This document shows positions 5,979-62,756 of a DNA stretch of 64,000 nucleotides, one piece after another. This DNA comes from a virus. The notes beneath the pieces were generated by a model that did no database searches, had not been told where the DNA came from, and was given only the letters and a program-made list of their open reading frames with translations. Where the stretch lies: IMG/VR virus record IMGVR_UViG_3300029723_000002, positions 1 to 64,000 of that record, one strand, 5' to 3'. Within the stretch, counting starts at the first letter, position 1. Every line of letters begins with the position of its first letter. The position numbers and the translations under genes were made by a program.

Positions 5979-8200
5979 TATGGCCTCCTATAATTCATTC
6001 ATTTTGTTTGAAACTCTGGGAGATCTTTATTTATAGATTGTTCATATGGCATAGTTCCATCAATTAATCCTCGAATATAACCATATCTTAATCAATTTCC
6101 TCTTAATGTGTCTTTATTAAAGACTGTTTGTTCAGTAATTCATCGATTAACTAGATTCGGATCATTGTAATCAGAGTATTCCGAAAGTAAATTTAATGTA
6201 CCTCCAATTTTTGCTCCCATATATTTTAGGTGTAATAATGCTGATTGAAAATTTTCAGGAAGCTTATTTACATCTACATTATATTTTGCAGCAGTATCTT
6301 TTACTACTTGCCATTCACTGTCTACAGCTAACTTATCAATAAATTTAATATCATCTAATGATAACTCATTTTTTAAAGATCTCTCATAGATATCTGGAGC
6401 TTTCTCTTTAAGTAGTTTATCACTAACCCCATGACCAATCAGCATTAATCCATTTTTCGCATAATTCGGATCTTTATATCACGACAAATGCCTTTTTATG
6501 CCCTCAAATGATCCTATTTGTTGCTGAACAATATCTAAATCTAAATTTGAATAAGTTTTTGGAGCTTGTCAGTTTTTATTAGCTCTATCAAACGATTTTT
6601 GTTTTGGAGGTTCTATTGATGGAATAAATTTACCACTGTTCTGAAATTTAGGAATAATACCTCCTAATTTGGCACTTTTAACGTTATCGTTTTTCTTTAC
6701 AGGAGCCTTTGCTACATCATTTAATAAGAATAATAAAAAATCATCATTGTATCTATTAAATAAATCAGGATCTCCCTCTGATTTATAATGACGAAACATA
6801 GTAGCATCTTCTAAATGCCAATCTTTAGTAGATCCAGGATAAATCGAAAAATCAATTTTATCAACTACTTTAGCTACTTTCTTACCTGTATTGTTATTTT
6901 TAAAAGTATATCCATATTGTATTTTTTGAGTCTGTTTATCTCTAAACTCCTCAATTTCTTTCTCAGTAAAGACATGTGTGGGATCAATATTATGCTGTCT
7001 TCTAAATTGCATTAACCTAGAATAAATCTCAGCAGGATTATCTAAATAATCATCCTGAGAAACATGTATAGTGTGAATAGGTCTACGTTTCTCGTATTCT
7101 TTAATAGTGTCGATTATAAAATAAGGATTCGTAGAATGAGCTAATTCATGAGCTGCTATTTCACTTACAGGTACTTTACTATTAGCTTTTACAACTAAAT
7201 AGTGATCCTCTGGATTATAAAAACCTTCTTTATTTTCCATAAGCTTATCAGAAATATCGTACCTAAGTAACTTACCCAGAGGACCATTGACAACTTGTTT
7301 ATACTCTTCTTGTTCCTCGGGACCAGAGTTATATAAATATGTATCAACAGAAGTTAATCTGTCATTTAATCAATGGTATCCTAATGTTTTACTCTGTAAT
7401 CATTTTGGAAGTGATGACCGCTCTCATAGATTTTTATTAATAATATGTCTTCTTTTATTATACCAGTTAGTCATTCATTCTTGAGTCGACTCAATGTCTT
7501 CTCGATCTGTTCAGCGATCCTTAATTCTTCCACCTTCTTGTAACTTTTTTAGAATACCTCCTAGTTTAGAATTTTGTATCATCTTGTGTAATACAGACTG
7601 ATACTTAGGATCAGTAGCATAACCACCTCGTGCTACTCTAGATGCAAAATCATTCACAGATCCAGAAAATGCTCTATATCTCTTATTATTTAATAAGTTA
7701 ATCTTATAATTAGCATAATCTTCTAAAGAAGAAAAATCCTTAAATTCCTGATTTAATCTTATATCCTTACCATTAATAACTTCTCGTGTGCTAGCAACAG
7801 TACCTTTACCTTTGATCCCTCCAAAATTGAATAATCCAGAAGGCTTTTTACCTCAAGCTGATTCCAACCCATCTTGTGCTACTAAAGCCTTAGCAAATGT
7901 GGGATTTAATCCTTTTTGCCTTAGTAACCTTTCATATATAGGAGTCATTATTGATTTAAACTCTTCCTTAGAAGTAAATTTTTTAATCGGTTTCTTAACT
8001 AAAGACTGATATTCTTCTATGGGAGTTTCTTGTATACTTAAATCAATAGAAGACTCAACTGAATTTTCTTCTGGAATATCAGAAGCTTCTTTAGTAACTA
8101 AATATTTAGGAGTATATTCAGATACAGGAACAGGTCTGGATAAAGAATAGTCTGTATTAAAGCTGTCCTCTCGTATATAAGGTCTATATGTTATATCCAT
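5978..8200 (-). CDS. large virion-associated peptidoglycan hydrolase: N-terminal FlgJ-type glucosaminidase domain plus HExxH metallopeptidase-like domain; 741 codons with about 11 in-frame TGA
   Basis: Track ORFs 7853..8200, 6569..7240 and 6140..6445 are all in one frame. Every codon between them was translated and no TAA/TAG was found from the ATG (8198-8200, preceded by in-frame TAA at 8219-8221) to TAA at 5978-5980. The N-terminal stretch ...AQDGLESA W GKKPSGLFNFGGIKG...YRAFSGSVNDFASRVARGGYATDPKY matches the Glucosaminidase (PF01832-like) ESGWG...NN[LF]FGIK...YATDP pattern. The middle carries HELAH. Confidence 0.6.
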
Positions 8201-11027: not shown

Positions 11028-11234
11028 ATGGTACACGTTGCAACTAATTTTGGAGTTATTGAGGCCGAGTCTTATCTTATGGATGACAGTTTCGCAGGTG
11101 ATGACGTACTGTCAATGCTTCTCACTCGTAAACCTATTCGTCAGAAAAATCGCTCTCGTAAAGAGTACAGTAAATCTGCAGCTCGTGCAGCGATGAAGGA
11201 CATGCGTGAAGAAGGCTGGGTAAGGCGTAAATAA
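11028..11234 (+). CDS. small basic protein
   Basis: Track ORF, followed directly by a strong terminator. Confidence 0.4.
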   Translation: MVHVATNFGVIEAESYLMDDSFAGDDVLSMLLTRKPIRQKNRSRKEYSKSAARAAMKDMREEGWVRRK

Positions 11235-11245
11235 CAATCACCACA

Positions 11246-11277
11246 ATCTCTGGAGATAATTTCTCCAGAGATTTTTT
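11246..11277 (+). terminator. rho-independent terminator
   Basis: atctctggaga-taatt-tctccagagat followed by ttttt. Confidence 0.6.
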
Positions 11278-11329
11278 ATATTAACAAAAGCCACAAAAGA
11301 GTGGTTACAACCATAAAAAATATTGCGTT

Positions 11330-12348: not shown

Positions 12349-12819
12349 ATGAAAAAATTTGCAAAAGAAGAACTGGCACCGATTCCTGAACGTAACGGCC
12401 TCAAAGCTAAAGAGGTAAGTCTGAAAGCACTCGAAGAAAAAGGTCTGGGTATCGTTTCATACGGTGTGCAGAAGGGAGAAGTCATCGAATTCCCTGACAC
12501 CGAAGAAGACGCAACTGTATGGGCACGGCCTGTTCGTGAAAACGGTCCTGAAGAAATGCTCGTCGCTGTAAAACGCAACGACAAACCCAGCTGGTTCAGT
12601 ATCGGCGGACTTCGTCGTATGGACTATCAGGGTAAACCTGTAGGTCCTGTATGCGAGGATCTGCGCTCGTGCAGCAACGATTACGAACGTGTGAAACGTA
12701 TGCTGGGTAAGAAGATCACGGCAAACGAAACCACTGAAATCCAGGTATATCACTTCGACAATGGGGTTCGTACTACTGACCTCGAACCTCGTACTGTACC
12801 TGTACTCGTTTATGCCTAA
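12349..12819 (+). CDS. hypothetical protein, paralog of 11330..11854
   Basis: Track ORF. The paralogy to 11330..11854 was seen in the sequence. Confidence 0.5.
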   Translation: MKKFAKEELAPIPERNGLKAKEVSLKALEEKGLGIVSYGVQKGEVIEFPDTEEDATVWARPVRENGPEEMLVAVKRNDKPSWFSIGGLRRMDYQGKPVGPVCEDLRSCSNDYERVKRMLGKKITANETTEIQVYHFDNGVRTTDLEPRTVPVLVYA

Positions 12820-16064: not shown

Positions 16065-16149
16065 GCTCCTGTGGTGAAAATGGTAAACACACACCTCTTA
16101 AGAGGGTGCGCCGTAAGGCTTGTCAGTTCGAGTCTGACCAGGAGTACCA
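16065..16149 (+). tRNA. tRNA-Leu(UAA), type II, CCA encoded
   Basis: Hand-folded. Acceptor gctcctg/caggagt. Three-bp D-stem gtg/cac. Anticodon stem cacct/gggtg with loop cttaaga. Variable arm gccgtaaggc. T-arm gtcag-ttcgagt-ctgac. Discriminator a, then cca. Confidence 0.7.
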
Positions 16150-16622: not shown

Positions 16623-17267
16623 GAGGAGTTAGCTGAATGGCTTCGAATTAAAAACATTTTCATAACTTTACTTCGTCCTAATAAACGACTAACTAAATGG
16701 TATGGTGAAGTATGGCATATTAAAGATGAAGATTGGCATACTGATCTTGAAATTGAAGGTAATTCTGCTGAAGACTGTTTCGAGCAAGGACTACAGGTTG
16801 GATTATCTTTATTGCCTGATATAGTTGATGAGTAATTTTAAAATCCTGATAATGTAGATGCTCCTATTAACGAAAGTTAATTGCTACAAAAACAGGTTAG
16901 GTCATAGAGAGCACTATGACAAGGGATAAACTCCAATGAATACAGAAAGGAGATCCCGATGACAGGATGCATAGCAACCTCGATTTGAAAAATAGTTTGA
17001 TAAAGATTGTCATTTTTTTATAATTTCAAATAATACTATATCTACAGCAGCGACGCAGGAAGTTGTACAATCTGTTTTCAGAGCACTGTAATGAGTAGAG
17101 AGTCAGATGTATAGTATTATTTTATTAATTTATAAATAGTTATCGAGGCAATAGGAATTAGACAACGAACGAGACAGGAGTCTAAGAAGGAGGTATTTTA
17201 AAGAATAATACTATCGAGTCTCAACGTATTATTTTGAGAAATGTGTAGATAATTATTTACATTATAT

Positions 17268-17483
17268 ATTACAGTGATGGAATTGGTAGACATGTGAAGT
17301 TTATAGAAAGTATGTTGATTATATAGAAAATATATAAGAAGGGTAACTGTTAACCTAGGATACACATGTGATAAAGGCGAAGTAAATCTGCAGAAGCTCC
17401 CTGTTACTTCCAGACTTAATATTTTCTATGAACTTCAAGATTATTGGTACTAATCGTTGCAAGTTCGAGTCTTGCCTGTAATA
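17268..17483 (+). tRNA. split type-II (Leu-like) tRNA gene interrupted by a 126-nt insertion in the anticodon loop (exons 17268..17304 and 17431..17483)
   Basis: Perfect acceptor pairing attacag/ctgtaat. Leu-like D-arm atg-gaattggtaga-cat. Anticodon stem tgaag (17295-99) pairs with cttca (17433-37). Variable stem-loop gatta-ttggtac-taatc. T-arm gcaag-ttcgagt-cttgc. The anticodon-loop identity is ambiguous (UAU or UAG depending on the exact junction). Confidence 0.5.
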
Positions 17484-17627
17484 TATATTTATTTATATTT
17501 AACCTTTCAAGCTTCAGTAAACTTGGATAATTTGCTCAAATCGAGAGGTATACATAGATTAACTCAATGACCAAGTAAGAGAGTTAGTATTTGCTGCGAT
17601 GGTGGAATAGGTAGACACGAGGGACTT

Positions 17628-18451
17628 TAACAAATAAATTCATTTTTTATTTGGTATAGATAAAGCTTTTTAATATCTTTGTATACAATAAATATATAAA
17701 GAATATGTCAAAAGTAAAATGAACCAAAGAACTACTTGAAAAAATAGTACCTGAATGTTATTCATATGCAGAGGTGCTAAGAAGAGTGGGATTAAAGCCT
17801 ATGGGTAGTAATCCAAAGACTTTAATTAAAAAATTAAATGAATTTAACATAGATTATTCACATTTTACAGGACAAGGATGAAATAAATACGGACATCCAA
17901 GTTTTGGAAACTCAGGAAAAGCACTTACAAGTGTGTTGAATAAAAATAGTTCTTTGCCTTCTTCAAAGGTTAAAGAAAGATTACTAAATAATCACTTGAA
18001 AGAGAATAAGTGTGAAGTATGCGGTATTACTGAATGACAAGGTTCTCCAATTATATGTGAATTACATCACATTAATGGAGACACAACTGATAACAGGATT
18101 GAAAATTTACAAATATTATGTCCTAATTGTCATAGTCAAACAGATAATTTTAGACGCAGAAATGTGAAAAAGGTAGTGAGCACTCAGAAGGAAACTTCTG
18201 ATGTGAATGTAGGCTAATTCGGCGAAGGTATCAGCCTTATAAATGATAATAACGCCGAGCTAAGTAAGTAGAAGGAATTTTCGTTTTTGTTCGTAATTCT
18301 TAATATATCGTCCAACGGGAGTGTATGTATACTAGCACCGACGCGATAACTTCTACTTTAAATGTGTAGAGACTATACACCTACCTCCTAAACTGAAAAG
18401 CATGGAGAAGACATAGTCCACGTAATTAGCTGATTCTCAGGCTATTACGAG
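17628..18451 (+). mobile_element. group I intron (824 nt) carrying an HNH homing endonuclease ORF
   Basis: Core elements seen downstream of the ORF: P4 pairing ttcggcg...cgccga, an R-like gtagagactata and an S-like gaagacatagtcca. The last nucleotide is G. Confidence 0.6.
17705..18217 (+). CDS. intron-encoded HNH homing endonuclease (170 aa), 3 in-frame TGA = Trp
   Basis: MSKVK W TKELLEKIVPECYSYAEVLRRVGLKPMGSNPKTLIKKLNEFNIDYSHFTGQG W NKYGH...CEVCGITE W QGSPIICELHHINGDTTDNRIENLQILCPNCHS. The GQGWNK and EW tryptophans are encoded by TGA. Confidence 0.7.
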
Positions 18452-18525
18452 AAAATCCCTTGGGCAGTGATGCCCGTGCGAGTTCGATTCTCGCTCGCAG
18501 TACAAAAATTTAATTTTGTTGTGAT

Positions 18526-19359
18526 ATGATGATTATAGATAAAATTAAAAAGATGTTAGGATACAATATATTAACCTTAAGGCAAAATAAAGAAACAGAT
18601 ATCGATGATTATGATATTGCATTAATTAAGTTATGTAAGATGTTTCGTATTAATATCAAACATCAACAATTTTTTGCAGATCATATTGTTGATTCTGTTA
18701 AGATTCCATATCATCCATACGATTATTGTGAAAAGTTATTAATAGACGATTTATATAGAAGACCTTCAATTAAAAGAAATCATCATTTAATATTCTTTCA
18801 ATATCTAGTAAGACTATTATGCCAAAAAGAGGAAATCTCAAGTAGAAGAATCAATACTTTTGAGTATATTGGTACTTATATGCTTATTAAATACAATAGA
18901 GAATATATCCAAGAGTTGATTAAAAAATGGAGTTCTCCAGAATGTGATCCTTGTTTCCATGTTTGGCAAGATTGTGTAAAATACTATCAAGCATTTCGGG
19001 TTAACTATATGTTTAATAGTTATGACATTAATCTAAGAAAAGCAAGGAAAATCTTTTCACTAAATTCAAAATCAGTGGACTTCGAATGGTATGTTTGGGA
19101 TAATAGTGCCAGTTGGTTATATACCTGGTTTGCAGAAATCACTAAACAGCATAAAGTTTATAGATCGTCACATTCAACAGTAAAAGATAGACTAACTCAA
19201 TGTTTTAATACTCTTGAAATCACCTATACAAAAAATAAAAGTATCATTAAAAGCGCTTATAAAAGAGCGTGTTTAAAATCTCATCCTGACAAAGGTGGTA
19301 GTCAAGAAAAATTCATTGAAGTTACTCAAAGTTACGAATACATAATGACACATGTGTAG
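18526..19359 (+). CDS. DnaJ (J-domain) protein
   Basis: The C-terminal AYKRACLKSHPDKGGSQEKFIEVTQSYEYI carries the HPD motif of J-domains. Confidence 0.55.
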   Translation: MMIIDKIKKMLGYNILTLRQNKETDIDDYDIALIKLCKMFRINIKHQQFFADHIVDSVKIPYHPYDYCEKLLIDDLYRRPSIKRNHHLIFFQYLVRLLCQKEEISSRRINTFEYIGTYMLIKYNREYIQELIKKWSSPECDPCFHVWQDCVKYYQAFRVNYMFNSYDINLRKARKIFSLNSKSVDFEWYVWDNSASWLYTWFAEITKQHKVYRSSHSTVKDRLTQCFNTLEITYTKNKSIIKSAYKRACLKSHPDKGGSQEKFIEVTQSYEYIMTHV

Positions 19360-20737: not shown

Positions 20738-20820
20738 GCTATTATAGCTTAATTGGTAGAGCAAGTGTAACATAGGGCCCTATGTTACTATGAGCGTTGG
20801 TTCGAATCCAACTAATAGTA
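20738..20820 (+). tRNA. tRNA-like element whose anticodon arm is replaced by a 22-nt perfect palindrome (gtaacataggg|ccctatgttac)
   Basis: Canonical acceptor gctatta/taatagt. Leu-like D-arm gct-taattggtag-agc. T-arm gttgg-ttcgaat-ccaac. No 5+7+5 anticodon arm can be drawn. A second orphan ggttcgaat and a 9-bp hairpin agtgctagg...cctagcact follow at 20824-20890. Confidence 0.35.
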
Positions 20821-21396: not shown

Positions 21397-21624
21397 ATGC
21401 TAAAGGTAGACATAACATATAAAGTAGAATCTGAAGCATGGAAACATATAGTGCTGAAAGCAAGTGATATTTTAGGATATAAGTCTGATTCTATTTCAAT
21501 CGGAACCTTATCTGATTTTAATACATTTGATGAGTTTTCAGCAACTCTCAGAAATACGCTACTTCGTGGATTAGGATTAGGTAATACTACGTCGTTAGTA
21601 GTTGGCAAGGTAGAATTCATATAA
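21397..21624 (+). CDS. hypothetical small protein
   Basis: Track ORF. Confidence 0.4.
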   Translation: MLKVDITYKVESEAWKHIVLKASDILGYKSDSISIGTLSDFNTFDEFSATLRNTLLRGLGLGNTTSLVVGKVEFI

Positions 21625-21747
21625 TTCTATAGAAACTGATAAGATAATAAACTGCCATTTATTGTCGAAACAGTATAGCTCTGGCAGGAGTGACGGTAAA
21701 GTATAAGTCTGCACCGTGGAGTGTAATGCTCTTTTTTACTTAACAAG

Positions 21748-21819
21748 ATTAGTATCGTATAATGGTTATTATACTGCGCCACCCAGCGGGAGATGTGAGT
21801 TCGAGCCTCACTGCTAATC
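21748..21819 (+). tRNA. tRNA-like gene, anticodon arm not resolvable (best fit is a 6-nt loop, caccca)
   Basis: Acceptor attagta/tgctaat. D-arm gtat-aatggttatt-atac. T-arm gtgag-ttcgagc-ctcac. The region gcgccacccagcggg does not fold into a canonical anticodon stem. Confidence 0.3.
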
Positions 21820-21835
21820 CAAATACTTTAATATT

Positions 21836-28855: not shown

Positions 28856-29261
28856 GGGGGATACAGGTATTGACTAGTATATCGAAAGTTATTAATCAAG
28901 CTGAGTTTGAATAATACTCATTAAACAGATTCAAAAAATAAACGCAAACAAAACTATTTCGAGAGCTATTAACAAGGTTAAGAACTCTCTCGCTCCTATG
29001 ATGACTCTGACTCGTTCTGAAGTTGCATATGCAGCGTAGGCTTGTATCGCCTTATAATAGATACAAACTGGGTTTCTTTGTTTAGACATAAAAACAAAGT
29101 GGTGGAAGTTGACCTAACTGGTCAGCCCTACTGTTCCATTGACGTTGGGAACTAAAAACTAATGCTATCGAGGTGTGGACAACCAGAAATGTATCCTAAG
29201 CTTGTAAGTATGTTAATAATAATAGAATACTAACACATGAGTTCGAATCTCATATCCTCCA
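28856..29261 (+). ncRNA. ssrA: candidate tmRNA (SsrA-like), about 406 nt
   Basis: The 5' gggggat pairs with the 3' atcctcc to give an acceptor stem with G3:U70 (Ala identity) and discriminator A. T-arm atgag-ttcgaat-ctcat. An internal reading frame starts at GCA (28944), 88 nt from the 5' end, and ends ...SEVAYAA-TAG at 29037-29039. The element sits in a 718-nt ORF-free, GC-richer intergenic region. Confidence 0.5.
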
Positions 29262-29282
29262 CTAAATCAATAAGTTACATAT

Positions 29283-48692: not shown

Positions 48693-48763
48693 GCCTTTGT
48701 CGTTCAATGGTAGGACAGCGCTCTTCAAAAGCGTGTATGTGAGTTCGAATCTTGCCAAGGGTG
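48693..48763 (+). tRNA. opal suppressor tRNA: tRNA-Trp-like body with anticodon UCA (reads UGA as well as UGG)
   Basis: Hand-folded, 71 nt. Acceptor gcctttg/caagggt. D-arm gttc-aatggta-ggac, as in Trp tRNAs. Anticodon stem gcgct/agcgt with loop cttcaaa (U33, UCA, A37). T-arm gtgag-ttcgaat-cttgc. Discriminator G73, which is the Trp identity base. Confidence 0.7.
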
Positions 48764-48793
48764 CTAACTGATTAAAAACTAACAAGTTATAAT

Positions 48794-52798: not shown

Positions 52799-54463
52799 AT
52801 GAAAATGAAAACTGAAGCACCAAGTATTGAAAAATTAGATCTTAAAAGACGTAAATGTACTTTAAGTGACGATATGATTCGATTGATGCTAAGACAGTTA
52901 ACTCATGAAATGTACAATCATAACTTGTATAGAAGTTTTGCAAACTTTTATGGAGTTAGAGGTTTTCAAGTACTAGAACAATATTATATTGATCGTGCTG
53001 AGGAAGAAAAACTGCATCATGATTGGGTATATGGATATTTAAATGAATGTGATGCTGAATTTATTTATCCCGAAATTCCTGCCATTTCAGAAAAGTTTGA
53101 AGATATGATTACTCCTTTCCAATTAACAGTTGATAAGGAAATTCAAACAACTATGGAAATTAATGAAATGGTTGATTTAGCTTGTGACACAAGCGATTGG
53201 GCAACTTTCAATTGGCTTAATGGACATGACAAAGAAAAAGGCATGTTAGTTAATGAGCAGGTAGATTTCTGCCTGGCTATATAGTAATATATAGTAAGAA
53301 CAAACCAAAAACGGTGGAGGCTGCGATGCTAATACCGTGCTAATTTAGAACTTAAAAAATTCTAAACAGTGTAACGCGTAGATTTTGAACCTAATTATTA
53401 ATAGTTTTAAATTTGTTTGTGAGTTTAGTAAAGAATTATTATCTTTGTACTGAACCTTTAAAAGAATTAATATGGCTAAAATTAAAGAAACAAACAAATT
53501 TTATGAAAATAAGATTTTTCAATCAAAATCTTATGGAGATTTTAAAGTATTAAAATATAATAATACTTTTAATGTAGAAATAGAGTTTTTAACTACTGGA
53601 TATAAAACTTCAGTACAGTTGAGTAATGTTAAATCTGGTAGTGTCAGAGACCCTTATTATCCAATAGTTTATGGTGTTGGGTATATGGGAGAAGGTCCTT
53701 ATAAGTCTCGACCAGTACAAAATGGCCCGCAGAGCAGATGTTATAAAATTTGAAAAGAAATGTTGGGAAGATGTTATTGTAATAGCACTTCAAGTTTTAT
53801 AAATTATGGAGCTTGTGGAGTTGTTGTATGTTCAGAGTGGCATAATTTTCAAAACTATGCAAAATGATATTATAAAAACTGCATAAACGAATCTTATTGT
53901 GTTGATAAAGACTTTTTAGGAAAAGGTCTTAAAATTTATAGTCCCACGACTTGTTGCTTTATTCCTGAAGAGATTAATGCACAGTTAACATTAAGACAGT
54001 CAAGGAGAGGAAAATTTCCATTAGGTGTAAGACCCTGTGGAAAAAAATATCAAGCACAATTAAACAAAAACTCTAAAAAAATTCCATTAGGTGTATTTAA
54101 CACAATTGAAGAAGCATTTAACGCATACAAAACAGCTAAAGAAACGTTTTTGAAAGAGTTAGCTGATAAATATAAAGCTACTATTTCTGAGGAAGTTTAT
54201 TATGCATTAAAAAATTTTCAAATAAATATTAATGATTAGAATAAAATAAATCCAAGAGTGGTTTGCCCCTATATTTTAGGGTGAAAATGTACGCTGAACT
54301 ATAGTGAAATGAAGCTATAGAAGTTAAGATAAAAAGCTTAACGATAACAAATTGAGAAGAAGAAAATATCAGTCGAACAGCGTTGGATATAGCAGAGTCT
54401 GAAGGCAGTTGGCTTAGAAAAGAGAAATCTATCATGAATGCATATAAGGGTGATACAGATTAA
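52799..54463 (+). CDS. ferritin-like protein, split gene: exon 1 52799..53262, group I intron, exon 2 54355..54463
   Basis: Exon 1 ends ...ATFNWLNGHDKEKGMLVNEQ-V(gt|). Exon 2 supplies (a)EEENISRTALDIAESEGSWLRKEK... The spliced product matches the bacterial ferritin C-terminal region (E. coli FtnA ...[25 protein letters not shown]...). Unspliced, the ORF would end VDFCLAI*. Confidence 0.6.
53263..54354 (+). mobile_element. group I intron carrying an HNH-AP2 homing endonuclease
   Basis: The 5' exon ends with U and the intron ends with G. It shares the motifs gtgtaacgcgtag and ccaagagt...aaaatgtacgctgaact and the 3' terminus gataacaa(a/t)ttg with the intron at 60996..62095. Confidence 0.55.
53472..54239 (+). 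CDS. intron-encoded HNH homing endonuclease with AP2-like DNA-binding domain (255 aa), 2 in-frame TGA
   Basis: ...GYMGEGPYKS...RCYKI W KEMLGRCYC...NYGACGVVVCSE W HNFQNYAK W ...RPCGKKYQAQLNKNSKKIPLGVFNTIEEAFNAYKTAKE matches the HNH_3 plus AP2 architecture of phage homing endonucleases (I-HmuI-like). Confidence 0.55.
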
Positions 54464-60912: not shown

Positions 60913-62756
60913 ATGGCTATCGAATTACCAAAAACAAAAATTCCTGCAGCAACCCAAGATCCTAAGTATCTGATTCTCTTTGGTTTGCCAAAGGTCAATC
61001 TGGCCCATTAGTTTAGTAATAGACTAAGTTGTATCGGGGAAAGTCGATGAATGCTAAAATTTTCTTACTTTGGTATTGGAATATACGGAAAATTTAACTA
61101 TATTTGTGTAGTTAAATTAAAAATTATATGAAAATAAACCAATTAAAGTATACAGAACAAGAAATTAAAAAGTTTGGTGAATATTATAAGTTAGGCCATT
61201 CTTTAAAAGAAACTGCAGAATATTTTAATGTTAATTATCACACATTAAAACAAAATTTGATACGATTTGGATATAGAACTCCAATAAAAAAATTAAGTAA
61301 CCAAAGAGTAACTAGTATTACTTATTTTGATTGTATTGACACTCATGAGAAAGCCTATTTTTTAGGACTGTTATTTGCAGATGGATACATTTCAAAAACT
61401 CCTTATGGAGTTAATATTGGAATTGCTCTTCAGTTACAAGATAAATATATCTTAGAGCATTTAAAGAGAGAAATTAATGTGTCAAATAAAATTTCAGATT
61501 ATAAAAACAGTTCAAAATTTTCTGTAACATGCCAACATATGTATAAGATACTAAGGAGTTTAGGGATAAAAGAAAATAAATCACATCTAGATTACAAAAT
61601 TCCTAATATTGATGAAAATTTTATCAATTCTTTTATACTTGGATATTTTGATGGAGACGGTTGTATAACTATAAAATCTACGGGCTATAGCGTTGTTTCT
61701 ATTTGCTGTAACTCTAAATTATTTTTAGAAGATATACAAAAATATTTAAATAAGTTAAATATTGCAACCCGACCTATTACTACAGAAAAAAGAATGCATA
61801 ATAATTTATTTGTTCTATATCTTTCAAAGAAAGAAAATCAGTTAAAATTTATGAATTTAATTTATAAAAATAGTAATATATTTTTACAAAGAAAATACCG
61901 TAAATTTTTGCAAATATCGAGCTAACTATTATAATAATATATAATAGTAGTGTAACGCGTAGGAAGTGAACCTGTTTTACAGAATATAATCTTCCCAAGA
62001 GTCTCCGAAACTTTTATTAAAAGTTTAAAATGTACGCTGAACTTATAGGAAACTATAAGAACTATAGGATAAAAAGCCTATAGGATAACAATTTGTGGAA
62101 AAACTACAATTTTAAGCACTCTAGAAAATAATCTAATTTTAGATACTGAATCAGGAAGTGATTATATTGATGCTTTAAAGGTTAAAGTATCTAGTGTAAA
62201 GGATATTAAGGAAGTTTGTAAAGCTATTATTGAGGCCAAAAGACCTTATAAGTACATTACTATTGATACTGTTACTGCATTGGAAGAAATTGTTAAACCA
62301 TTAGCCCTTAATTTATATAAAAACTCTCCTGTATTTGGAGAGAGGTTTGCTGATATAACTGATGTTACTGCTCTTCCTAATGGTCAGGGATATATGTGAA
62401 GTCGACAAGCTCTTGAAATGGTTATTGACATGGTATCTAAATGTGCTCCAAATATTATTTTATGTGGTCATGTTAAAGATGTATCATTAAATGAGGGTCT
62501 TGATGGCAGTGTTAAGGATTTAGACCTGACAGGTAAAGTTAAACGTATTCTTTCTGCTAGAAGTGATGCTATTGGTTTTTGTCATCGCGATACTAATGGT
62601 AACCTTTGTATTAATTTTGGTGGGGATGGTGAGATCCTTACTGGTTCAAGATGTCAACACCTAGCAGGTAAAGATATTATTGTAGCAGAGCGTCAGGAAG
62701 ATGGTTCATTTGTTTCACATTGGAATAGGATTTTTCCTTCATTAAGCAGTAAATAA
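60913..62756 (+). CDS. Sak4-like (AAA_24/RecA-like) recombination ATPase, split gene: exon 1 60913..60995, group I intron, exon 2 62096..62756; 1 in-frame TGA in exon 2
   Basis: Exon 1 is MAIELPKTKIPAATQDPKYLILFGLPK(gt|). Exon 2 is (t)GKTTILSTLENNLILDTESGSDY... The splice restores the Walker A GLPKVGKTT. The 5' exon ends with U and the intron ends with G. Confidence 0.55.
60996..62095 (+). mobile_element. group I intron carrying a LAGLIDADG homing endonuclease
   Basis: Its 5' segment resembles that of the intron at 53263 (caatctggccca... against agatttctgcctggct...). Shared core motifs gtgtaacgcgtag (61955) and aaaatgtacgctgaact (62029). Ends ...gataacaatttg. Confidence 0.55.
61128..61925 (+). 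CDS. intron-encoded LAGLIDADG homing endonuclease (265 aa)
   Basis: Two LAGLIDADG-type motifs: LLFADGYISK and ILGYFDGDGCITIK. Confidence 0.65.
   Translation: MKINQLKYTEQEIKKFGEYYKLGHSLKETAEYFNVNYHTLKQNLIRFGYRTPIKKLSNQRVTSITYFDCIDTHEKAYFLGLLFADGYISKTPYGVNIGIALQLQDKYILEHLKREINVSNKISDYKNSSKFSVTCQHMYKILRSLGIKENKSHLDYKIPNIDENFINSFILGYFDGDGCITIKSTGYSVVSICCNSKLFLEDIQKYLNKLNIATRPITTEKRMHNNLFVLYLSKKENQLKFMNLIYKNSNIFLQRKYRKFLQISS

Follow-up and report, generated by a model that had tools for sequence, protein, structure and literature searches.

How does a phage come to carry a leucine transfer RNA (tRNA) gene that is cut through its anticodon, and can such a gene still give rise to a normal tRNA? The locus that raises this question lies in the viral record IMGVR_UViG_3300029723_000002 of IMG/VR, of which we analyzed positions 1 to 64,000 (hereafter, the window). 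A sequence-only reading of the window had proposed that a group I intron splits a tRNA-Leu(UAA) gene and itself contains a gene for an HNH homing endonuclease. We consider it very probable that this element is a self-splicing group I intron of the trnL family, that the HNH gene in its loop L1 depends on the reading of TGA as Trp, and that the intron would spread by homing with exon co-conversion.

The split tRNA-Leu(UAA) gene and its group I intron

All parts of the split gene lie on the plus strand. Exon 1 (17593-17627, 35 nucleotides [nt]) supplies the 5′ strand of the acceptor stem, the D arm, the 5′ strand of the anticodon stem, and C32 U33 U34, and its 3′ end reads GGGACTT, as first described. 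Exon 2 (18452-18502, 51 nt) begins with AAAATCCCTTGGG and supplies A35 A36 A37 A38, the 3′ strand of the anticodon stem, the long variable arm, the T arm, the 3′ strand of the acceptor stem, and A73. When the two are joined, ARAGORN folds them into a type-II tRNA-Leu(UAA) cloverleaf with an acceptor stem of 7 base pairs (bp; G1.U72 among them), a 3-bp D stem, a long variable arm, and A73. The anticodon arm consists of a 5-bp stem, AGGGA/UCCCU, with three G-C pairs and the loop CUUAAAA. In its intron mode, ARAGORN also detects the split gene in situ, and the identical split gene is present in two independent contigs, L381 and L385. The intervening sequence ends in ...CGAG. Only a boundary at U34|A35 is compatible with both a 7-nt anticodon loop and an intron ending in G (G18451, the terminal omega-G); the intron is therefore 17628-18451, 824 nt, the length originally given. 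It has no counterpart in the syntenic tRNA-Leu gene of a related contig, L386.

The sequence-only reading had named the Rfam Intron_gpI model (RF00028, gathering score 50 bits in Rfam 15) as a check on the group I assignment, and the outcome was divided. Neither a gathering-threshold scan of the whole window nor a scan at E≤10 of 16700-18700 gave a group I match. When the scan was limited to 18150-18470, 3′ of the endonuclease open reading frame (ORF), the model aligned over its full length, covering 18156-18436, at 31.1 bits (E=2.3e-6 for this small search), which still misses the gathering score. These results count against the assignment. We ascribe the low score to the position of the ORF in L1 and to divergence of the subfamily, because L150 and L209, the closest ORF-less relatives of the window intron among the matches listed, also fall below gathering. 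Other ORF-less viral introns pass it (L075 at 68 bits, L220 at 68.6, L089 at 55.6, L038 at 51, and L026 at 50.2).

These viral relatives came from two pattern scans of IMG/VR, followed by ARAGORN filtering for tRNA-Leu(UAA)-type genes split at the U34/A35 site. The filter was needed, as matches to the first viral pattern (ATAGTCC..GAAAATCC) were mostly due to chance. ARAGORN also labeled introns at related loci as "Tyr(ata)," "Phe," "Stop," and the like; the calls we inspected, among them every "Tyr(ata)" call, were mis-parsed tRNA-Leu(UAA) genes. Altogether, at least 49 viral contigs carry a tRNA-Leu(UAA)-type gene split at U34/A35, with inserts of 178-877 nt.

Alignment A1 comprises 21 ORF-less phage tRNA-Leu introns and is annotated with the P1-P9 structure; from it we built a covariance model, R1, with the window left out. 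In A1, 96.5% of the cells in P1-P9 form standard pairs, and 26 of the 48 pairs are altered on both sides. None of 500 shuffles matched the observed values, and slid controls reached 33-38% paired. The wider alignment set is 90.5% paired, with 40 pairs altered on both sides. R1 matches 18150-18457 at 98.2 bits (E=7e-25, 64-kb window searched), and this group I match of the window intron is far beyond chance.

Set against the R1 consensus, the window sequence forms standard pairs at 9/9 positions of P2, 5/6 of P3, 7/7 of P4, and 4/4 each of P8 and P9, many of them compensatory. In P3, for example, GUAGG/CCUAC in the window corresponds to GAUGG/CCAUC in L021 and to GCUGG/CCAGC in L016 and L054. 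P7 is invariant across the A1 family, so conservation is all that backs it. Covariance-model alignment and pair counts thus recover a group I core: P3-P4-P5-P6-P7-P8, the P3/P7 pseudoknot, and a bulged nucleotide in P7. Judged by its predicted helices, the R1 score, and the omega-G, the insert is a group I intron at the canonical U34/A35 site of tRNA-Leu(UAA), as the sequence-only reading had it.

The intron opens with an AT-rich 5′ leader (17628-17704), which forms the start of loop L1 upstream of the ORF and is without counterpart in ORF-less relatives. The internal guide sequence, read from the sequence and from homology with the corresponding column of the family, is GAG at 18178-18180. 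It would pair with C32 U33 U34 (C-G, U-A, U.G) as a 3-bp P1, with a splice-site wobble between U34 (17627) and G18178; the same column is U.G in 21/21 aligned family sequences. Homology with this column rules out the guide sequence GGGAGU that we had considered at ~18318 as part of a 135-nt mini-intron. In L016 (4541-5403), the same intron family occupies a tRNA-Leu gene with anticodon CAA, whose exon ends in C, and the splice-site pair of P1 becomes C-G rather than the usual U.G.

Downstream of the guide sequence, the P2 hairpin (CACUCAGAAG-GAAA-CUUCUGAUGUG, 18181-18205) lies within the 3′ end of the ORF, and the 5′ strand of P3 (GUAGG/CCUAC, 18209-18213/18380-18384) overlaps the last ORF codons. 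P4 (UUCGGCG/CGCCGAG, 18218-18224/18253-18259) encloses P5 (AAGG/CCUU, 18225-18228/18235-18238). P6 (AAGUAGAAG/CUUCUACUU, 18266-18274/18350-18358) carries an extra insert of ~75 nt in L6, which is common to L191. The 5′ strand of P7 (18369-18375) reads G-A(bulge)-GACUA, the R element, invariant in the family, and its 3′ strand (18414-18419) reads UAGUCC, the S element. The R-like GTAGAGACTA and S-like AAGACATAGTCC elements and the P4 pairing are present 3′ of the ORF, where the sequence-only reading had placed P4 and R/S-like elements. The P8 hairpin CUCC...GGAG (18385-18388/18404-18407; 4/4 pairs) and J8/7, AAGACA (18408-18413, from covariance-model alignments), complete this region. The P9 hairpin (CGUAAUUAGC...GCUAUUACG, 18421-18430/18441-18449) is followed by an A and then the omega-G, 18451.

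In the precursor, the anticodon stem would hold the two exons together, while GAG at 18178-18180 pairs with C32-U33-U34 in a short P1 whose U.G wobble marks the splice site. Guanosine is predicted to bind to the P3-P9 core in P7. Two transesterifications would then excise the intron ending in G18451 and ligate U34 to A35, leaving the RNA junction GGGACUU-AAAAUCCC in a normal tRNA-Leu(UAA).

The HNH gene and its TGA codons

The ORF (17705-18217, plus strand) encodes 170 amino acids followed by a TAA stop. It passes the Pfam cut-offs for HNH_3 (26.7 bits against 24.8) and HNH (22.9 bits against 21.4) and matches PHROG 10822, "HNH endonuclease," at E=7e-49, in agreement with the gene first predicted inside the intron. 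Alignment with intron ORFs of 16 other contigs shows the conserved motifs CxxC...HHxxG...N...CPNCH, which comprise the HNH residues and the zinc-binding Cys pairs. The C-terminal peptide ..TQKETSDVNVG is common to relatives with the same layout. The ORF sits in loop L1 in the window, L003, L034, L126, and L191, and a homologous ORF sits in L6 of L016, L021, L054, and L135. In the window, its final ~13 codons share nucleotides with the guide sequence, P2, and P3.

There is no TGG codon in this ORF; instead, TGA occurs in frame at 17720, 17879, and 18035. The TGA codons at amino acids 59 (FTGQGW) and 111 (ITEW) align with Trp positions for which over 10 homologues use TGG; L126 and L191, the nearest relatives, likewise have TGA at both positions and no TGG at all. 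The third TGA, at amino acid 6, aligns with Tyr in homologues. Two of the three TGA codons thus fall at conserved Trp positions, which bears out the earlier claim that the gene reads TGA as Trp.

ORFs of at least 100 amino acids cover 54% of the window with TGA as a stop and 73% with TGA as a sense codon. Genes containing TGA cluster at 1-13 kb and 50-61 kb, and the genes at 15-50 kb are almost free of it. Since the HNH gene uses TGA and the central genes hardly do, it is an alternative-code gene within a standard-code block. A 72-nt tRNA with anticodon UCA (48693-48764, plus strand) is the candidate TGA suppressor needed to translate it. The large ORFs of the window match phage endolysin, helicases, a DnaB-like helicase, CobT/CobS-like proteins, and an exonuclease, consistent with the phage-like element originally described. 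Judged by its genes and codon use, the source is a large gut phage that recodes TGA as Trp.

Two observations on the window's gene content belong here. An endolysin-like ORF of 740 amino acids with 11 TGA codons is among the TGA-rich genes at the window ends. The central block holds at least 16 tRNA genes (calls made by Rfam only included), a transfer-messenger RNA (tmRNA) at 28856-29264, and the UCA suppressor tRNA at 48693.

All three Trp codons of the HNH gene are TGA, and the gene should therefore be translatable only when the phage UCA suppressor tRNA is active. The TGA codons probably restrict the endonuclease to late infection and, earlier, keep ribosomes off the ribozyme core. From the sequence we infer self-splicing, the activity and target of the endonuclease, and this role of TGA in timing. 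The locus is a testable case for stop-codon recoding that times the expression of a selfish endonuclease.

HNH endonucleases are known from phage group I introns in protein-coding genes, among them I-HmuI (SPO1), I-TwoI (Twort), and I-BasI. The window intron resembles these in being a phage-borne group I intron with an HNH gene in one of its peripheral loops; unlike them, it lies in a tRNA gene. A PDB search detected no sequence match between the window HNH protein and any solved HNH endonuclease. Similarly, a blastn search of 17400-18700 against GenBank phages returned only weak matches to HNH genes, with no related intron or phage.

A close parallel to the TGA usage that we describe comes from Borges et al. 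(10.1101/2021.08.26.457843). In Agate phages, which recode TGA, they reported an early gene interrupted by a group I intron whose endonuclease is enriched in TGA, and they proposed that this endonuclease is expressed late. There, as in the window, an intron endonuclease uses TGA instead of TGG in an otherwise standard-code, TGA-free part of a recoded gut phage, and the proposed consequence is the same in both, early splicing with the endonuclease made late. The host gene in the Agate phages is not said to be a tRNA gene; the window intron is in tRNA-Leu. According to a 2014 review, the phage introns known at that time all lay in protein-coding genes, despite the many tRNA genes of phages (PMC3984707). 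We found no later report of phage tRNA introns in a literature search whose coverage was incomplete, so that their absence from the literature is not proven.

Relatives, presence/absence polymorphism, and alternatives

Among bacterial introns, that of trnL(UAA) is the textbook case of an ancient element passed on mostly by vertical descent, and its representative in Nostoc/Anabaena PCC 7120 belongs to subgroup IC3. For the Anabaena intron, Zaug et al. are said to have found in 1993 that the anticodon stem is needed for splicing. The window intron shares with this cyanobacterial intron its host gene, the U34/A35 site, and the helix set. Motifs are also common to the two: GAGC[C/U]AAG after P4, [C/U]AGAGACU in P7, and AGUCC in P7′. 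Unlike its cyanobacterial counterpart, the window intron has an HNH gene in L1, an extra L6 element, a different P9, and a phage location.

Where does it belong within this family? When bacterial genomes were scanned at one per species, more than 120 had an intron of this type at tRNA-Leu(UAA); the carriers include Alphaproteobacteria, Cyanobacteria, Bacteroidota, Acidobacteriota, Bacillota, and Patescibacteria. R1 matches eight cyanobacterial trnL loci at 107-123 bits, compared to 98 bits for the window intron. Identity to the window intron, computed over shared core columns, is 74-89% for the nearest viral contigs among the matches listed, 67-71% for Bacteroidales/Paludibacteraceae metagenome-assembled genomes (MAGs), 64-66% for Clostridiales/Ruminococcus MAGs, 56-57% for Bartonella, and 49-53% for Cyanobacteria. 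The sequence-only reading had likened the architecture and insertion point to those of the cyanobacterial/plastid trnL(UAA) intron and had suggested comparing the cores. The likeness holds, in that a single model matches both at a core identity of ~50%, and the introns are homologous; the closest introns are those of gut phages and Bacteroidales, not the cyanobacterial ones. Because core identities are highest to viral and Bacteroidales sequences, we place the intron in the gut phage/Bacteroidales branch of the trnL(UAA) family. By this comparison it is a new intron in the known tRNA-Leu(UAA) group I family, real and fairly ordinary, and the family proves to be common among the tRNA genes of phages.

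An mSystems 2026 survey of bacterial tRNA group I introns gives 34/35 in tRNA-Leu as a standard site and includes a Bacteroidota tRNA-Leu(UAA) intron with an HNH gene (PMC13011429). By its description, the window intron is like that one in its tRNA-Leu(UAA) host, its 34/35 site, and its HNH-family gene. The Bacteroidales examples that we retrieved differ from the phage-borne, TGA=Trp window intron in being ORF-less and in lying on chromosomal-looking contigs (L275 and L317 look chromosomal by eye).

Near relatives of the window both have and lack the intron. The same intron is present in two contigs, L381 (137 kb, from IMG/VR) and L385 (from a gut metagenome). Aligned with L381, the window shows 0 differences over 17583-18472 (890 nt, including all 824 intron bases and all 170 codons), compared to differences at 52 of 834 positions (6%) in the next gene. 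L386, a 93-kb gut contig that is syntenic and 90-97% identical, has the orthologous tRNA-Leu(UAA) without the intron. Relative to the window, the acceptor stem and D arm of this tRNA are identical and its T arm is nearly so, whereas ~22 of 47 central bases, in the anticodon and variable arms, differ. The mosaic breakpoints between the two lie at ~17607/17619 and ~18474/18481. In a more distant haplotype (L369, L360, L382, and L383), the gene is also intron-less, and its central block is identical to the exon flanks in the window. As these comparisons read, the insertion site is flanked by a mosaic, co-conversion-like exon tract.

Intron-less alleles and relatives of the intron are also found more widely. 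The exact 24-nt junction sequence is present in intron-less tRNA-Leu genes of 34 viral contigs. The closest intron relative among the matches listed, that of L191, is 87% identical over 256 nt, L6 insert included. It has a TGA-using HNH gene, and its host is tRNA-Leu(UAG), interrupted at U34|A35.

Taken together, the polymorphism and the mosaic tract fit homing with exon co-conversion. We expect that the HNH enzyme would cut or nick tRNA-Leu alleles that lack the intron in co-infecting relatives, and that repair would copy the intron and adjacent exon sequence into them. These near-isogenic genomes with and without the intron, together with the mosaic exon tract, make a suitable case for studying such homing. 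The phage tRNA-Leu gene carries a complete, apparently mobile copy of the trnL(UAA) intron, and at least 49 viral contigs have an intron at this site; phages may therefore be important carriers of it. We suggest tentatively, and with some doubt, a broader picture: that phage tRNA-Leu genes are a large, essentially undescribed reservoir of trnL(UAA) introns, that phages move the intron and its exon flanks among themselves and into and out of gut Bacteroidales, and that homing is code-gated and confined to late infection. There is also a practical consequence. Standard tRNA finders miss intron-split tRNA genes, and the tRNA inventories of large phages are therefore undercounted.

Several points weigh against the account given here. 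If the insert were not a group I intron, and instead a free-standing HNH cassette or other mobile DNA that inactivates the tRNA, the whole-window Rfam scan would be expected to lack a match at the curated threshold, as it does. However, the full P2-P9 helix set, the invariant P7 and J8/7 sequences, an exon ending in U and an intron ending in G, the 98-bit R1 match, and the ORF-less homologues that pass gathering at the same tRNA position effectively refute this explanation. A different concern is decay: the ribozyme may be a relic that splices inefficiently, and the split tRNA-Leu a pseudogene tolerated thanks to an intact copy 1.5 kb upstream. That copy, an uninterrupted tRNA-Leu(UAA) at 16065-16149 (plus strand), was found where the sequence-only reading had placed it; it is quite different in sequence from the split gene, and as a redundant isoacceptor and functional back-up it would permit the split gene to decay. 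P1, just 3 bp including the U.G wobble, is the ribozyme's weakest feature, and the window has mismatches at flanking P1 positions where its relatives pair (A-4 with U, +1 with A/U). The sub-gathering Rfam score and the extra 75-nt insert in L6 can be read in the same direction. Against decay, the core helices are all intact with compensatory changes, the R1 score of 98 bits lies within the range of the relatives, and the ORF remains open, its HNH motif conserved. The ORF-less L150 and L209 also score below gathering in Rfam, which makes the low score a property of the subfamily. Finally, the intron has zero substitutions relative to L381, where a neutral relic should have diverged as its flanks did. 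We regard decay as very unlikely.

Another alternative accepts splicing and holds that the HNH protein no longer works, whether defunct or kept as ribozyme sequence, with the polymorphism left by one old gain or precise loss. Indeed, intron presence tracks haplotype in the few relatives found, for which a single gain or a single precise loss would suffice, and the mosaic tract is compatible with either direction of exchange. The first TGA comes as early as codon 6, and the C-terminal tail is constrained by RNA structure. In the PDB, a sequence search with the HNH protein found no solved or characterised close homologue and no biochemical relative. These observations have to be set against a full-length ORF that retains all conserved HNH and zinc-ligand residues. 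They also contrast with signs of recent movement, as related introns have homing-endonuclease genes of this family in either L1 or L6, and the intron in the tRNA-Leu(UAG) of L191 belongs to the same subfamily. The identity of the intron between genomes that are 6% apart and the centering of the mosaic exon tract on the insertion site likewise speak for a working enzyme. On balance, a defunct HNH gene seems unlikely, and we favor an intron with an active homing endonuclease.

Other elements in the window and related contigs

Another type-II tRNA (17268-17483), 110 nt upstream of the tRNA-Leu locus, is also split; its anticodon loop holds an insert of ~125 nt (~17305-17428). Its acceptor stem is paired at 7/7 positions. 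When joined, it reads as tRNA-Leu(UAG) if cut after A35, or has anticodon UAU if cut as U|..G|. At its two ends the insert has a 19-nt inverted repeat, which lengthens the anticodon stem to a helix of ~18 bp. The R1 model, run with filters off, gave no group I match in the insert, an Rfam scan at E≤10 of 16830-17500 gave no match, and a search for an insert-less allele of this tRNA found none. A loose pattern for similar inserts elsewhere returned chance matches only. Across 8 related contigs, the insert has 1 variable site and the exons have ~7. A compensatory change in the acceptor stem is among the exon differences, and L386 has a further one in the T stem. The insert may represent a novel type of small intervening sequence of tRNA genes, or else an insertion resembling a miniature inverted-repeat transposable element (MITE). 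With its conserved 125-nt non-group-I insert, this neighboring split tRNA is a stranger object than the tRNA-Leu intron.

Sequences around the two split tRNAs have features of their own. Between them, a hairpin at 17503-17549 resembles the abiF RNA motif of Rfam, at a score that misses gathering (26.5 bits, E=0.056), and is 100% conserved in L369 and L360 despite differing flanks. Upstream, ~420 nt at 16840-17260 contain no convincing ORF, are locally richer in GC, and hold several inverted repeats. This region has no Rfam match; it is 82-95% conserved in L381, and part of it is conserved in L359.

Elsewhere in the window, R1 matches 53252-53434 at 28 bits (E=4e-6), where a ferritin-like ORF (52799-53284; Pfam Ferritin positions 5-119 of 142) stops; an Rfam scan of 53150-53500 gave no match. 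The element is followed by a 255-amino-acid ORF (53470-54239) with 3 TGA codons and no Pfam match, and then by structured-looking RNA to ~54440. A second group I intron, divergent and equipped with an endonuclease gene of its own, probably interrupts the ferritin-like gene here. A weak R1 match at 60988-61136 (8.3 bits, E=0.8) is probably due to chance.

Unusual tRNA-like sequences also occur farther along the central block. At 20738-20820, Rfam recognizes a tRNA at 49 bits that ARAGORN does not, in which a 22-nt perfect palindrome, GTAACATAGGGCCCTATGTTAC, replaces the anticodon loop. We rejected a third "intron-containing" tRNA called by ARAGORN at 21594-21820 (130-nt insert) upon inspection by eye, as its 5′ "exon" is a mere hairpin with no plausible D arm. 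The 3′ part of this region is a separate odd tRNA-like sequence, and the region is 94% conserved in L381.

Among the related contigs, L191, L016, L011, L054, and L209 are viral contigs with tRNA arrays. L191 has two group I introns (11088-11308 and 12399-12687), one of them in tRNA-Leu(UAG). L054 encodes a skipping-rope RNA at 1708-1777 and L209 a tmRNA at 6451-6796, while ROOL RNAs occur in L016 (8971-9618, 298 bits) and L011 (3472-4037, 278 bits).

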